DNA of 27,996 nt, taken from Microcoleaceae cyanobacterium (GTDB lineage: Bacteria; Cyanobacteriota; Cyanobacteriia; Cyanobacteriales; Microcoleaceae). Shown here piece by piece: positions 7,917-19,787 of this stretch. The stretch is from positions 1-27,996 of the forward strand of contig JBOFUV010000088.1 of NCBI GenBank assembly GCA_051652765.1. Direction: 5' to 3'. Below the pieces are notes generated by a model, which saw only the letters and a program-made list of their open reading frames with translations, did no database searches and was not told the DNA's origin. A program made the translations under genes and the position numbers. How positions within the stretch are numbered: the stretch's first letter is position 1; each line of letters opens with the position of its first letter.

Positions 7917-8782
7917 ATTTCCACCATAAACATCACAGAATACTAATTTCAGTTTACCGTGACATGCCTGAACTGCCAAAGCACCGAACGAGCCGACATG
8001 AGTCAACCTAAAGTCGATGGTAGAGCGGCATGAGCATTTCTTGGCATTCGGATAGGTCAATGACACCCGCCGATCCCTTATTTTTGGCTTAGTGTAAATT
8101 CGATTTTACAATTTTGGAGCCAAATCCTTTTACTGTTGCCGGAGAAAACCTCAAGAATATTCCAATTTAGGGCATTGTATTTGAAGATTAAGCGTTCAAT
8201 CTCCAGGGGAAATGACAAGCCGCAATTTTTCACCCTTTTCTACAGTTGAGGCTCAAGCGCTAGAACTTGAATCGGTTGCAAAGACACGGGGATAAGTATT
8301 GTTGAAATAGAGTTAGGAGTAGTAGCAATTTAATGAGAAGGCGGATAGCAATAAATGACTTAAAAATTGGGCTCTTTGAAACTTTTATATAAAAAAGCCT
8401 TGATAATTGCTTTCAACCTAATAAATCGCTGGAATCCAGTAAACTCGTTCAACAATAAGAATTGCTGACTTATCAGACAGCTTAATGCAAAAAAGTAATA
8501 GTGTGTTACGATTATTGCAAGCCAAGTATAAGTCAAACCTCAATTAAGGCTTGAGATTTTTGCGACGGAGTTAGCATTACTTAGGCTTTTCAAAGAATTT
8601 ACTAGATTACATAGTTTTAGTTGCACAAGACTTTTACTGAAAACAAGGGATTACAGACTTCAAACTAGATGGGGTTTGTGCGGTTTTCTGCGTATGGATA
8701 AAACCTGAAATCTGAAGAAGCTCGGCAATTTTAAGGAAGGCTTCTCAATCGTTTGAGAATAAATTTAAGGAACTTTAATTGT

Positions 8783-9904
8783 ATGGCAGCCATAAAAGAA
8801 ACGGCTTTAGTTTACTGTGAAAATCAATTTGGCTTAGTAGATGGAAAAACCGCATCAGGGTTAGTTCGCCACTCTGAAATTTATACTATTGTTGGGGTTA
8901 TTGATAGTTCATTAGCGGGCAAAGATGCCGGGGAAGAGTTGGGGGACAAGAGGAGTGGGATTCCCATTTTTGCTAATTTAGAAGATGCTTTGAGCAAGCT
9001 TTCAGCAACCCCAAACTGTTATATCTATGGAAAAGCCCCCTTGGATGCTTGTATATCCACGGTCGAAAGACTTCTGATTTTAGAAGCGATGGAAAAAGGA
9101 ATGGACATCATTAATGGTCTGCATCAATTCTTCTCCGAAGACCGAGAATTTGTTCATATGGCTGTCCAGTGTGGTGTCCAAATTAAAGACATTAGAAAAC
9201 CCCCAAAATTAGAAGATCTGCATGTTTTCACAGGTCAAATATCCAAGGTGAATGTCCCTGTAATTGCTGTTTTAGGGACTGATTGTGCTTGTGGGAAAAT
9301 GACTACCGCAGTGGAACTCGACAAAGCTTTAAACCGCTTGGGAGTGAAGTCGGTCATGGTCGCAACCGGGCAAACCAGCTTAATGCAGGGGGCAAAGTAT
9401 GGCGTATCAATGGATGCACTTGTCTCCCAATTTGCAATTGGTGAAATCGAAAATGCTGTTGTTCAGGCTTTTGATCATGAGCATCCCGATATCATTTTGG
9501 TCGAGGGACAAAGTGCCGTCAGTCATCCTGCTTTTATGAGTTCTATTGGGATTTTAAAAGGAAGTAAGCCCGATGGCGTTATCCTACAGCATCCACCAGC
9601 CCGAAAGTTCCGATGTGATTTTCCTCATTTAACAATGCCGACTGTCGAGAGTGAAATTCAACTGATTGAAGCGATTTCTCAGTCTCAGGTGGTTGCGATC
9701 GCCCTGAGCCACGAAAATCTAACGGACGCAGAAATCCCGAAAATTATCAGGGATTATGAAAACCGTTTGCACTTGCCAACGACGGACGTACTCAATTATG
9801 GATGCCAAAAACTGGTTCAAGCTTTGTGCAAGCATTTTCCAAAGCTGAATCAAAAGATTAAACAAGAGAGTTTAGAAATAGTGCCTCTACTCATGATGAG
9901 GTAG
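8783..9904 (+). CDS. DUF1611-domain protein (P-loop NTPase fold; family that includes D-glutamate N-acetyltransferase DgcN)
   Basis: GKTASGLVRHS, IINGLHQF, VLGTDCACGKMTT, VATGQT, ILVEGQSAVSHP motifs; ATG at 8783 after AAGGA. Confidence 0.85.
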   Translation: MAAIKETALVYCENQFGLVDGKTASGLVRHSEIYTIVGVIDSSLAGKDAGEELGDKRSGIPIFANLEDALSKLSATPNCYIYGKAPLDACISTVERLLILEAMEKGMDIINGLHQFFSEDREFVHMAVQCGVQIKDIRKPPKLEDLHVFTGQISKVNVPVIAVLGTDCACGKMTTAVELDKALNRLGVKSVMVATGQTSLMQGAKYGVSMDALVSQFAIGEIENAVVQAFDHEHPDIILVEGQSAVSHPAFMSSIGILKGSKPDGVILQHPPARKFRCDFPHLTMPTVESEIQLIEAISQSQVVAIALSHENLTDAEIPKIIRDYENRLHLPTTDVLNYGCQKLVQALCKHFPKLNQKIKQESLEIVPLLMMR

Positions 9905-9929
9905 ACGCAAAGCCTCTGGATAGACATAG

Positions 9930-11000
9930 ATGAAAGCGTTAATCCCCAGAATAGAAATTGCCCTCTCTCAAATCCGACATAACACTCGGATGCTGTCCGA
10001 ACTGTATGGGCAACAAGGAATTTCCTTAATGGGAGTTTCTAAAGCGGTATTAGGAGATCCCTCAATTGCCGAGGCCATGATTCAAGGCGGAGTAAAATTC
10101 ATTGCCGACTCTCGCCTTGAAAACATTCAAAAGATGAAAAATGCTAGGATTTCAACTCAGTTTGTCTTGCTTCGCACGGCTTTAAGTCAAGCAGAATCTG
10201 TGGTTAAAACTGTGGATATCAGCCTCAATACGGAACTTGAGACGATCAAAGCACTGTCTTATTATGCAAACGCCTATAATAAAGTTCATCAAATTATTAT
10301 TATGGTCGAGTTGGGCGATTTGCGAGAGGGAATCCTTCCTTGCGATCTGTCTCAATTCATCAAAGAAACCCTTGATCTATCCAATATCAAAATTGTTGGC
10401 ATTGGTTGTAACTTGGCTTGTTATGGTGGAATCAAGCCAGATGACCCAAAAATGTGTGAGTTATCTGAATTAGCTAATTCTATTGAAAAAGAATTTCAGA
10501 TTAGCTTGGAAATAATTTCGGGCGGAAATTCGGCAAACTACGAATGGTATGAATCTGCACAAAGAATTGGGAGAATTAATAACCTACGTTTAGGGGAATC
10601 AATTCTTCTAGGATGTGAAACTATCAACCGAAAAGCCATTCCAGGCTTATACACCAGTGCATTCAAGTTGATTGCTGAGGTGATCGAGTCAAAAGAAAAG
10701 CCGTCTTTACCCTTTGGAGAAATTTGCCAGAATGCGTTCGGAAATGTTCCTACCTTTCTTGATCGAGGCATTCATCGGAGAGTTATTATTGCTTTGGGAC
10801 GGCAGGACGTTCTAGTATCTGGCTTAAAACCGAATCATGATCTAGAAATATTAGGAGCCAGTAGCGATCATGTGGTTCTCGACAGCAAAAACAATGATTT
10901 AAGAGTTGGAAGTGAAGTGAAGTTCAACCTAGATTATGGTGGACTGCTGGCAGCGATGACTTCTCCTTTTATTAAAAAGCAATTTGTCGGCTGTTTTTAA
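9930..11000 (+). CDS. Alanine/ornithine racemase family PLP-dependent enzyme (Orr-like, fold type III)
   Basis: GVSK (PLP lysine), ADSRLEN, MVELGDLREG, GCNLACYGG (Cys), ISGGNS, NLRLGESILLG, LGASSDH. Confidence 0.88.
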   Translation: MKALIPRIEIALSQIRHNTRMLSELYGQQGISLMGVSKAVLGDPSIAEAMIQGGVKFIADSRLENIQKMKNARISTQFVLLRTALSQAESVVKTVDISLNTELETIKALSYYANAYNKVHQIIIMVELGDLREGILPCDLSQFIKETLDLSNIKIVGIGCNLACYGGIKPDDPKMCELSELANSIEKEFQISLEIISGGNSANYEWYESAQRIGRINNLRLGESILLGCETINRKAIPGLYTSAFKLIAEVIESKEKPSLPFGEICQNAFGNVPTFLDRGIHRRVIIALGRQDVLVSGLKPNHDLEILGASSDHVVLDSKNNDLRVGSEVKFNLDYGGLLAAMTSPFIKKQFVGCF

Positions 11001-11639
11001 AGCGATCGCCCTGATGCCGTTAATGCTGCAATCCAATCTCGGAACACCTCTCTTTTCTGTGCAATTTCAGTTCGTTTTGCAAAAATCTGCTGCGTGCAGA
11101 AGCGTTTCTCTGGGTCGCTCACCGTTTTAAGGAACTTTTCGGACTGATTAAAGAGCAGATTTTCGACTTCAACCCACCGCCATGTTCGATTGTTATCCCA
11201 ATCTAGCTCCACGTAATGGCGGGTAGTTCGGTCTTGGACTCCCATCTGGATATTCCAATCCAGCCTTGTGCAGTCGAGCCAGCATTTTCGCTGCACTGAT
11301 GCATTCTGCCTCATTCTCTCAATCCAGCATCCGTCCCATCATCAACGGAAATAGCGTAACCAGTAAACCATCATGACAAAAGTAAGTAGAACCGTCATGA
11401 GCAGGGATTGGTGCTGGAACTTCTGGAATCTGAAGGCTCATGAATTGCATCAGCTTATGCTCGTAAGCGATCGCTTCTGGGGTGCTGGTCAGATGGCTGA
11501 TTCTCAGAACAAAAGCACCTCTCTCACAACTGAGATGGAGTAACTTGTTCCACTCTCCACCTGTTAAAGCGCACACCTCTTGAATCACACCAATTGAATA
11601 ACGTTCTTTAAGTCGTAAGCAAAGTTGAGGTGAAATCAT
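10997..11639 (-). pseudogene. Inactivated phosphotransferase (APH / type II homoserine kinase-like); probable integron cassette 2
   Basis: LTGGEWNK..FVLRI..EHKLM..VPAPI..TLFPLMMGRMLD, then in-frame TGA at 11321-11319, then ENEAECISAAKMLARLHKAG..PPLR. One extra base near 11210 shifts to ELDWDNNRTW...SGRSL*. It ends before any HGD catalytic motif. Confidence 0.8.
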
Positions 11640-11727
11640 GCTCCTTGTTCATGCATAACGACAGCATAACTTGATACTGGAACCAACCGAAAATCCTCTG
11701 ATGACCTCCCTTATGAAGGATTGAGCA

Positions 11728-11814
11728 GCCCAACGACCAAGATAAGCGGCGGTAGACAACTTCGGCAACCTCACCAAGATCTCTCGACCGTCCGCTGCAT
11801 TTGAATTGTTAGAC
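11728..11814 (-). mobile_element. Integron attC recombination site (87 bp)
   Basis: Minus strand GTCTAAC (R'') AATTCAA ATGCAGCGGACGG ... CCGCCGCTTAT CTTGGTC GTTGGGC (R'). Imperfect palindrome with unpaired C and A, i.e. extrahelical G and T on the opposite strand. It lies 58 bp after the parA-like stop. Confidence 0.9.
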
Positions 11815-11872
11815 AGACCTAGCCTCTCAACGGAAATCTAGACTTATCTTCTACGGCAATCTTTGCAGATTT

Positions 11873-12922
11873 TCACAGCTTTCCAACAAGCGTCTCAATC
11901 ACCTCATAACACTTATTTCTTTGCTCTTGAGCAACCTGAATCTCCTCGCCATACACTACGTAGCGACGCTGATCCAGCATTTGACTGAGTGGCAACCCTT
12001 GATTTGCTGCTACAACACCAGCACTATTGAAATCTCTCAGTTCACAACTGTAGACATCTTCAAATTGACTCTGAGAGTAACTATGCTTTTCTCCATCAAC
12101 AAAACGAGATTTATTTTTTTCATACTCCTCAAACATTTTTCTCACCGCTTCATTTGACAGCGCCTTGAAAGCCTGCGCTGCACCTTTCTTCTGGGTAAAT
12201 CTATTACCTAATAAAAGCGCAATCTTCGGTCTTTCCATACCAAAAGTATCAACCTTAGCAGCAAAAGTATATTTTCCGTAGACTGGATGCGTTTTCTCCG
12301 TGCCCCATATTAAATTGAACAATCCTGATATCGCATAAATTGAAGAGTCATCAGCATTGATAGGAACTAATAACTTTTGCCCTGACAAAATTGCAATTTG
12401 CGTGTAGATCGAGAAGCTGGGGTTAGTATCGATAAAAAATGTTGTTGGCTTGTCAAATATAGTACGCTCTGTAAATTTTTTAATGATTGAATGTATTTCA
12501 ACCCAAGGCGAATCCGTGCTGGATAATGGTGTTGCATCAGCTCTTTCTGCCAACAAGGGAGCAATTAGCTCAAGATTTCCGTCACCAGACATAAGAAAGA
12601 GATTTGACGGTAACTTTGGATTACTTTCCTGCAATTGAAGCAGATACTTCTTGACATCTGTGGTGTCATTTTTCAATACACTGTCTGTCAAGTAACCCAC
12701 AACAGTTCTAGGAATATCTCCAACAATTAGCTCTTGTAGACGAGATTCTGCACCAGTCCCACCACCCATCAGCATCATTGATGAGTTTGCTTGTGGACAC
12801 ATATCTACAACCACTACATTCTGCTCGCTGTGTTTCTCAGCGTACATAGATGCAATGTGGAAAGTAATGGTGCTTTTACCAACACCTCCTTTGTTATTCC
12901 ATATAACGTAACTTTTGTTCAT
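11873..12922 (-). CDS. Orphan ParA/Soj-family ATPase (integron cassette 1)
   Basis: Deviant Walker A WNNKGGVGKST, VVVDMCPQANSS, FFIDTNPS (Walker B), LLVPINAD. ATG at 12922 after AGAGAGG. AT-rich, no HIP1 seen, no parB next to it. Confidence 0.88.
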   Translation of the reverse strand: MNKSYVIWNNKGGVGKSTITFHIASMYAEKHSEQNVVVVDMCPQANSSMMLMGGGTGAESRLQELIVGDIPRTVVGYLTDSVLKNDTTDVKKYLLQLQESNPKLPSNLFLMSGDGNLELIAPLLAERADATPLSSTDSPWVEIHSIIKKFTERTIFDKPTTFFIDTNPSFSIYTQIAILSGQKLLVPINADDSSIYAISGLFNLIWGTEKTHPVYGKYTFAAKVDTFGMERPKIALLLGNRFTQKKGAAQAFKALSNEAVRKMFEEYEKNKSRFVDGEKHSYSQSQFEDVYSCELRDFNSAGVVAANQGLPLSQMLDQRRYVVYGEEIQVAQEQRNKCYEVIETLVGKL

Positions 12923-12970
12923 GAGCAACCTCTCTAAAACAACTCAACTCACCGCTTAATTGTTCTCTTA

Positions 12971-13036
12971 GTCTAACAATATCTCAAGGTTCAGTCTGTC
13001 TGAGGATTACCTTGAAATTTTCTGTATAAATCCCAA
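12971..13036 (-). mobile_element. Putative attI region; core site G|TTAGAC at 12977-12971
   Basis: GTTRRRY core exactly complementary to R'' of the downstream attC, located between the first cassette and the divergent intI start. No intact RYYYAAC arm is seen. Confidence 0.7.
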
Positions 13037-13182
13037 ATGGAACAATGCCCAAAAAAGCTACTGGATCAGGTGGCCGCTTCCACGCAGAATCAGGCATTCA
13101 GCGCTCTACTGTTTCTGTATCGGGAGGTATTCGGCAGGAGTTAGATTTACCGATTGATTCCATTCGAGCCAAACGCCCTCGT
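13037..13182 (+). pseudogene. intI: Integron integrase remnant (internal deletion, frameshift, truncation)
   Basis: ATG at 13037 gives MEQCPKKLLDQV-AASTQNQAFSALLFLYREV; a 1-nt frameshift near 13130 then gives RQELDLPIDSIRAKRPR. KLLDQV and VAASTQNQA.SALLFLY are characteristic IntI N-terminal motifs. The catalytic domain is absent. Confidence 0.88.
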
Positions 13183-13243
13183 GAGATTCATGCCTCAGTT
13201 CAGCAACGCCATAAATCCGTAGTGGGTTGCATTTGAGTTCAGA

Positions 13244-13342
13244 TTGATTGCTCATCAAACTCCTATTGATCTCACATTCAGATCAAGTTGATCACAGAGC
13301 ATTTACCCGTTGATCTCATACCAAACCCACTTTGATACAGAA
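13244..13342. repeat. Five TTGAT(C)-based motifs at exact 22-bp spacing
   Basis: TTGAT starts at 13244, 13266, 13288, 13310, 13332; the middle three are TTGATCWCA. Confidence 0.7.
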
Positions 13343-18641: not shown

Positions 18642-18715
18642 CGGGATCGACGGGGCTCGAACCCGCAACTTCCGCCGTGACAGGGCGGTGCTCTAACCAA
18701 TTGAACTACGATCCC
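18642..18715 (-). tRNA. trnD: tRNA-Asp(GTC)
   Basis: GGGATCGTAGTTCAATTGGTTAGAGCACCGCCCT-GTC-ACGGCGGAAGTTGCGGGTTCGAGCCCCGTCGATCCCG; cloverleaf, CCA not encoded. Confidence 0.97.
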
Positions 18716-19532: not shown

Positions 19533-19688
19533 TGTTCACTCCTAGGATTTCTCCCCTGTGGGAATTTACCAATTACTCTAACATTTTTGACATCTTCCCC
19601 ACGCTTACTTAAAGATAAGGATTCTACCGAAAGTCGTCGCTAGATCTCTTTTTACCCCCATCTTGAGAAGTGTGCTACTATACTCACT

Positions 19689-19772
19689 CAAGCTAGGGGT
19701 GCCTGCGAAGTCCAGGCTGAGAGACACCCTTGGAACCTGAGTTCGGTTAGTACCGACGTAGGGAAGCTGTTT
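19689..19772 (+). ncRNA. TPP (thi-box) riboswitch
   Basis: AGCTAGGGGTGCC...GGCTGAGAGACACCCTTGGAACCTGA...GTAGGGAAGCT directly upstream of thiC. Confidence 0.93.
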
Positions 19773-19787
19773 TCTGAGGAATTGAAT

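Follow-up and report, generated by a model that had tools for sequence, protein, structure and literature searches.

How does a cyanobacterial chromosome come to carry gene cassettes and an attC recombination site next to an integrase gene, intI, of which only the 5' end is left? The question is raised by the 27,996-bp contig JBOFUV010000088.1 of Microcoleaceae cyanobacterium (assembly GCA_051652765.1), here called the window, which is the entire contig C88 of the source genome G000 (5.04 Mb, 158 contigs, completeness 99.97%). An earlier note on this DNA had described positions 10997 to 13182 as a decayed integron, with an intI remnant, an attI site, a ParA cassette, an attC and a phosphotransferase cassette, and had taken it for a sedentary chromosomal integron whose integrase died in place. 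Viewed alone, the window locus is indeed an ordinary dead integron and works like a decayed chromosomal one. Viewed within its genome, it is probably a heavily eroded member of a dispersed, multi-copy family of integrase-less integron platforms that are served by the integrase IntI in trans. The parts of the locus are as follows.

11000..11733, minus strand: remnant of cassette 2, an APH-family phosphotransferase pseudogene (start 11639; last ~125 codons and attC lost)
11728..11814, minus strand: attC (R'' GTCTAAC, R' GTTGGGC; crossover 11734/11733)
11734..13001, minus strand: cassette 1, ParA-like, its first two bases lost at the 13001/13002 fusion with the platform remnant
11873..12922, minus strand: intact, orphan ParA/MinD-family ATPase gene (ATG 12922, 349 aa, 40% GC)
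12971..12977, minus strand: GTTAGAC, formerly proposed as attI, within the cassette 1 leader (GTCAGAT in genome G072)
13002..13036, plus strand: last 35 bp of the attI-intI platform, the attI core and other boxes being deleted
13007-13029: sole surviving platform box, GAAANTTTC-centred, within this platform end
13037..13179, plus strand: intI 5' remnant, codons 1-12 fused to codons 67-~105, without the catalytic domain
13184..13210, plus strand: short dispersed repeat, also standing alone on several other contigs, at the point where the intI remnant breaks off 3'
13211..13248, plus strand: 3' half of a ~70-bp noncoding tail common to 13 other intI stubs
13244..13336, plus strand: ~4 degenerate units of a 22-bp tandem repeat, ending ≤~10 bp from the stop codon of a DUF3318 gene

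Two diagnoses of the earlier note, the dead intI and the attC, were borne out. The reading frame from ATG 13037 matches the integron integrase model TIGR02249 (E = 7.2e-6) and PF13495 (E = 6.8e-6). At the DNA level, a longer stub on contig C74 shares 91% identity with the remnant over 110 bp, and a near-complete intI in G002, a genome of the same genus, shares 87% over 116 bp; the G002 gene itself scores 478 bits with TIGR02249. The remnant lies on the strand opposite to the cassettes, i.e., divergently, and is of integron-integrase ancestry. Its first 12 codons are in frame and are followed by an in-frame deletion of ~162 bp (54 codons) with a short AGGT microhomology at the junction, 13072/13073; there is a 1-bp deletion after 13131, and homology is lost near 13179, at codon ~105. 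What the window holds is therefore only a 5' remnant, not a complete integron with an intI encoding the catalytic and IntI-specific C-terminal domains.

With a covariance model, the bottom strand of the attC at 11728-11814 reached 68.2 bits (E = 2.9e-18) and its top strand 9.4 bits, against 12.5 bits for the second-best match in the window. The 13 training attC of this model all came from other genomes; they had been picked with a hidden Markov model (HMM) from G000, and the covariance model is thus not wholly independent. An HMM trained on the other attC of G000, with the window left out, detected the site at E = 4e-16. Compensatory changes occur in 10 of the 16 pairs of the attC model in the training alignment, and many BLAST relatives of the window attC were found on other contigs of G000. 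The folding energy of this attC, taken alone, does not exceed chance (z = -0.93; 33 out of 200 shuffles did equally well), and hairpin energy was accordingly dropped as attC evidence. Both the attC match and the IntI similarity, on the absence of which the note had said that its interpretation would fall, were hence found. With one attC only in the 28-kb window, the locus is not the CALIN-like array (cluster of attC sites lacking integrases) that the note had assumed, as a CALIN is defined by at least two attC with no intI nearby (PMC4889954).

The ParA cassette was also upheld. The gene is intact, its product matches PF13614 (E = 6e-16), and a 94% identical gene is present in G072 (1 of 400 other genomes), where the cassette lies directly behind an attC and begins G|TTAGACAGAC. 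DNA identity between G072 and the window extends to 13001, placing the cassette start 26 bp further up than GTTAGAC. Metagenome contigs from X2 and X8 (two of the four runs examined) likewise match the window up to 13001, and the X2 contig runs on past this position into an attC-like end. The true start of the ParA-like cassette is at ~13003, and TTAGACAGAC also complements exactly the sequence flanking the R'' of this same cassette. The GTTAGAC core is indeed there, 60 bp from the intI ATG, and complements the cassette R'', but it is ruled out as attI by the cassette starts in G072 and X2/X8, which put it inside the ParA-like cassette; GTTRRRY occurs 80 times in the window, counting both strands. 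Among 10 other genome loci with a ParA-like gene (of which L039 is the G072 locus again), six have an adjacent attC match, as expected of a cassette: three attC lie just downstream (two of them near-identical), one full and two partial attC lie just upstream, and four loci have none.

The second cassette was correctly called phosphotransferase-like, but it is a pseudogene and lacks an attC of its own. It consists of two pieces of one 340-aa phosphotransferase, 97% identical to P0001, with an in-frame TGA at 11319-11321, a frameshift at ~11210 and loss of homology at aa ~213, near 11000. It starts at the attC crossover and its 3' end is gone; no second attC was found after it with the covariance model at E < 0.26, filters off. 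A search for the genomic context of an intact relative found none (0 of 400 genomes, 0 loci).

The note had advised searching the genome for an intact intI and further attC. DNA profiles for the intI 5' stub, attI, tail and attC revealed 18 stubs, 21 attI-like sites, 19 tails and 93 attC matches on 36 contigs of G000, and the covariance model gave 79 attC at E ≤ 1e-3 among the 150 candidates scored. Hence attC abound (79 to 93), but no intact intI is present in the assembly. No TIGR02249 match above cut-off was obtained in G000, and tblastn with the G002 IntI found no intI 3' part or catalytic domain in the assembly, the sole other 3' matches being two Xer/Fim-like proteins with 35-49% identity. 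Of seven tyrosine recombinases in G000, the two closest were examined and proved Xer-like and FimB-like by size and domains.

The 18 stubs are distributed over 17 contigs, and the window copy is hence not a single sedentary integron. Twelve are broken at the same place, intI codon 21, and fused to the same ~70-bp tail; the other six, the window copy included, have private break points. An attI match accompanies 16 stubs, the tail 14, the 22-bp repeats 13, and an attC on the expected strand at most 5 kb away 14. Of 84 attC, 43 are located no more than 10 kb downstream of an attI or 5' stub. The longest nearby distal open reading frame (ORF) of the 17 other stubs is each time a different gene (among them MutL, MurJ, LplA and NUDIX); 16 of these ORFs match Pfam and none is a transposase. 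The stubs therefore occupy separate loci, next to unrelated housekeeping genes. An N-terminal protein profile detects only 4 of the 18. The window locus is the most eroded copy of this dispersed platform family.

The region from attI core to intI is built of GAAANTTTC-centred boxes with inverted TTRKAY-like arms at a spacing of ~40 bp (e.g., C17:34440-34770), and several platform copies have lost internal boxes. A box-built attI region is also seen in G002, G017 and G028, two sequence types being common to G000 and G002. The platform tree, computed from a gappy alignment with rows of unequal length, was used only to show two attI types. One attC lies in opposite orientation inside its array (C22:53918-54006). 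On C94 of G000, an ORF with ~17-residue tandem repeats (L005:2033-3061) lies near a 191-aa tyrosine recombinase; it resembles a phage tail-fibre gene and may be one.

G|TT is where IntI links an attC to attI, and the cassette acquired last adjoins attI. Each of the 21 attI of G000 leads into a GTTRRRY-like core and then into sequence that is unrelated between sites: in the first 500 bp past the 21 attI, the sole overlap is a short piece in C50, C67 and C97. Nearly all attI copies thus head a different first cassette at the canonical G|TT crossover. For the 14 attI with an attC within 3 kb, 82 of the 112 positions after GTT match the R'' flank of the cassette's own attC, compared to a shuffle mean of 52.9 (none of 100,000 shuffles was as high). 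This match points to separate attI × attC insertions, of which the junction pattern would be the signature. A recurrent cassette of ~210 bp, too short for an ordinary gene and starting GTTATCTTGCCAGCG, is found in many arrays (C21, C22, C30, C34, C82, C136, C50 and C67).

These data suggest a sequence of events in which the platform (attI, intI, tail and 22-bp repeats) reached many sites by copying or recombination, largely after most of intI had been lost. An IntI from elsewhere, since lost, unassembled or transiently acquired, would then have loaded the cassettes at each attI by ordinary attI × attC recombination. In the window, loading would have ended with the ParA-like cassette, placed ahead of the phosphotransferase cassette, and later deletions would have taken attI, the end of cassette 2 and 54 codons within the stub. 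Compared with the sister copies and G072, platform homology begins at 13002 and cassette homology ends at 13001, with no attI between intI and the first cassette; a single deletion appears to have removed ~190 bp of the attI platform plus the first two cassette bases. Because no att site is left upstream, the ParA-like cassette would now be fixed in place, with its gene intact.

The same junction could be read as cassette entry at a secondary genomic site (the attG route, bioRxiv 10.1101/2022.09.11.507474) beside a stub that had no attI or, in a variant, as IntI recombination at a pseudo-attI behind the last box, with 4 bp lost afterwards. The sister copies do have a G 7 bp outside the last box, which is the spacing of the true core outside the first box. 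However, the G|TT left behind by any IntI insertion is missing from the junction, one deletion suffices to explain it, and the attI core is kept at 17 of the 18 stubs (16 by HMM, C71 by eye), making this route very improbable.

We consider it equally improbable that a single sedentary integron at the DUF3318 gene lost its integrase in place and kept its attI. The divergent intI remnant, the cassette and the attC are all there, as this model predicts, but the attI is deleted, 17 sister stubs lie elsewhere, and the comparison of the DUF3318 locus that the note had recommended revealed no integron part in five of five relatives, so that the model is largely refuted. Of two genomes of the same genus, G001 had no stub, attC or 22-bp repeat in the searches made. 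The other, G002, has a near-complete intI in which one in-frame TAA occurs, along with at least five further stubs with private breaks and no tail. The flanks of six G002 platforms all map to platform-free places in G000; hence a fixed locus shared with relatives, the mark of a sedentary integron, was found neither at DUF3318 (0/5) nor for G002 (0/6). G002 and G000 nevertheless share a first cassette, at 88.6% identity, behind different platforms.

A more serious contender is that complete integrons at many loci decayed in place, each loaded by its own IntI with no action in trans, and that the codon-21 junction was spread among them by gene conversion. Multiple integrons are certainly no rarity in this group. 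An IntI N-terminal profile found matches in 136 of 251 genomes of the class, with at least two in 84 and at least three in 53 (with scoring of ≤21 candidates per genome and a profile that may pick up other integrases too), and of 20 chosen intI loci in seven closed or near-closed genomes, 8 were full-length, 9 truncated at the 3' end and 3 internally deleted, an attC match being near 17. Several dispersed integrons per chromosome are therefore common in cyanobacteria. In G849, G862 and G028, distant copies share attI and 5' intI at 88-92%. The 18-copy, shared-junction, repeat-tailed form was seen in G000 only among the genomes searched.

Besides the full-length intI that lie far apart in closed genomes, decay with conversion is favoured by the private breaks. 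Several observations weigh against a platform family spread after truncation. The window copy itself lacks the codon-21 junction and has its own break, and would therefore have joined the family before or apart from the codon-21 event. The shared junction is present on two attI types, with tail identities of only 79-97%; gene conversion between older copies would account for this as well as amplification would, and it counts in favour of decay with conversion. No empty-site allele was found, because the flanks are not syntenic in relatives: the neighbours of DUF3318 and of the racemase operon on the other side of the locus differ in every relative examined. Distal ends, inspected and compared by BLAST, show no fixed end among the platforms. 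There are 22-bp arrays without an integron on C49, C63, C109, C134 and C145. Finally, the platform on C68 runs off the contig end just before the intI start, where an intact intI could follow.

Two facts speak against decay with conversion. An intI 3' part is kept in none of the 18 G000 copies, compared to 3 of the 12 broken copies elsewhere, and conversion needs homology on both sides, so that the tail and repeats must still have travelled with the platform. On balance we regard this explanation as unlikely, though the strongest of the rivals.

The C68 platform bears on a further scenario, that the system is still active and an intact intI in an unassembled region or replicon serves the attI in trans. 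It would be helped by the absence of any contig below 1614 bp, the smallest in the assembly, by the intact look of many attI and attC, and by the near-complete G002 intI being interrupted by just one in-frame TAA. Set against this are the completeness of the assembly, the expectation that a unique intI 3' part should assemble with its flank, and contig C101, which starts within a 22-bp array and might be where C68 continues. An active system is thus rather doubtful, less probable than decay with conversion; an intact intI outside the assembly would itself be compatible both with that explanation and with the platform family served in trans.

How the platforms of such a family would have spread is less clear. 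We see about even chances that the copying step was driven by recombination and not by transposition, one end recombining through homology in the platform, the cassettes or the 22-bp repeats and the other being joined by IntI or illegitimately. The 22-bp repeats, which are noncoding and nearly genome-specific (0 of 300 other genomes of the order; for the tail pattern, 0 matches in the metagenome collection), may have provided such homology. Platforms C22, C45, C50 and C97 have a further 55-198 bp in common just past the 22-bp arrays, suggesting that these four descend from one larger copied segment. Arrays without an intI stub are located as follows.

G000, C49:7034-7143
G000, C63:18298-18495
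G000, C109:8279-8520
G000, C134:30390-30631
G000, C145:12540-12803
G000, C116:6680-6789
G002, C107:621-732 (3 units; no integron part seen)

A more specific version, to which we would give slightly less than even odds, is that of a nonautonomous mini-integron amplified to at least 12 chromosomal sites after integrase loss, its copies capturing different cassettes with IntI in trans. The unit would measure ~400-600 bp and comprise attI with its boxes, 21 intI codons, the 70-bp tail and 22-bp repeats. Like integrons with flanking MITEs (miniature inverted-repeat transposable elements) and the integron mobilization unit (IMU), which have paired flanking MITEs and are moved by a transposase (PMC3575428), it would be a defective integron whose movement, past or present, depends on help in trans. 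The G000 platform differs in ending in attI on one side and in ragged 22-bp repeats on the other, and neither a flanking pair nor a transposase next to it was seen; BLAST revealed no common terminus at the distal ends, no formal inverted-repeat or duplication test having been run. Simple attI-driven platform hopping is argued against by the report of no significant genome insertion rate for attI donors (bioRxiv 10.1101/2022.09.11.507474). The platform itself may have entered as a cassette, as a circle joining an attC through its attI. The tandem intI units of G016 fit this, as do the attC that lie past the repeats at C61, C116 and C144, but these three attC are not preceded by a common sequence.

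The G016 units (C1:4478000-4500000; L032, L033) are tandem intI-cassette-attC units, with three long intI and two fragments in ~25 kb, each downstream of the attC of the preceding array. In G862 (C1:2637000-2641000; L119), nine attC are spaced at ~308 bp in near-identical repeated cassettes, which also occur in a second integron 2.3 Mb away.

Truncated or absent intI with retained cassettes and attC is known from Xanthomonas, where integrase-less arrays can be mobilised in trans (bioRxiv 10.1101/2025.06.18.660453). There, intI occupies one conserved locus (ilvD) with few exceptions, whereas the 18 stubs of G000 lie at unrelated loci and are not shared with the congener. CALINs and SALINs (single attC sites lacking integrases) likewise have attC without a functional integrase nearby, and the single attC of the window would be a SALIN to a detection tool. 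A SALIN has no other att sites or integrase nearby and is proposed to originate by attG insertion (bioRxiv 10.1101/2022.09.11.507474); the window attC, in contrast, adjoins an intI 5' remnant. The finding that 95% of CALINs have no intI pseudogene nearby was obtained with the IntI_Cterm profile (PMC4889954), which is blind to 5' stubs like those of G000. More than one intI has been reported in 20-22% of integron-bearing genomes (PMC4889954, PMC9024848). Cyanobacteria are named as integron hosts (PMC8352920, PMC8618304) and a phylum-specific attC model exists (PMC8352920), the accessible parts of the latter paper holding nothing on multi-copy attI platforms. Multi-copy platforms of attI and intI stub in cyanobacteria were not found described in the literature searched, most subscription journals and supplements, where the integron counts per genome of the IntegronFinder papers could be relevant, lying outside it.

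We know of no cyanobacterial attI that has been defined by experiment. In the window, a scan for the cassette promoter Pc returned promoter-like sites at chance level (4 found versus 3.3 expected). The ParA-like protein has 2037 relatives at E ≤ 1e-30, ~70% identical ones occurring in Vibrio and Desulfobulbaceae records. No parB lies beside its gene, the neighbours being the phosphotransferase remnant and the intI stub (parS was not searched for). No close solved structure was found (best E = 7e-5), and PADLOC gave one weak match only (E = 0.002, 38 residues); a defence role is possible.

The genes of the window have cyanobacterial relatives, and highly iterated palindrome 1 (HIP1) occurs once per 1.56 kb. 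Cassette 2 abuts a racemase gene whose last codons differ from those in G002 and an X1 contig after 10988, with a HIP1 site at 11002 beside the altered end. This gene belongs to a pair, DUF1611 plus alanine/ornithine-racemase-like (8484-10988, 40-42% GC), which is 74% identical to G002 and had no match in four other relatives searched. A thiamine pyrophosphate (TPP) riboswitch (19685-19781, plus strand) and a tRNA gene (18642-18715, minus strand) are found elsewhere in the window; Rfam gave no match in the integron region.

The family to which the window locus probably belongs is relevant to the open question of how integrase-less cassette arrays originate. The 21 natural attI variants of G000, with their crossover points, make in-trans loading directly testable. 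If the mini-integron interpretation is true, the cyanobacterial integron would be a distributed one, in which a single integrase, shared or visiting, serves numerous landing pads. Many CALINs and SALINs of cyanobacteria would then be arrays headed by attI, with an intI stub too short to be picked up by present tools.

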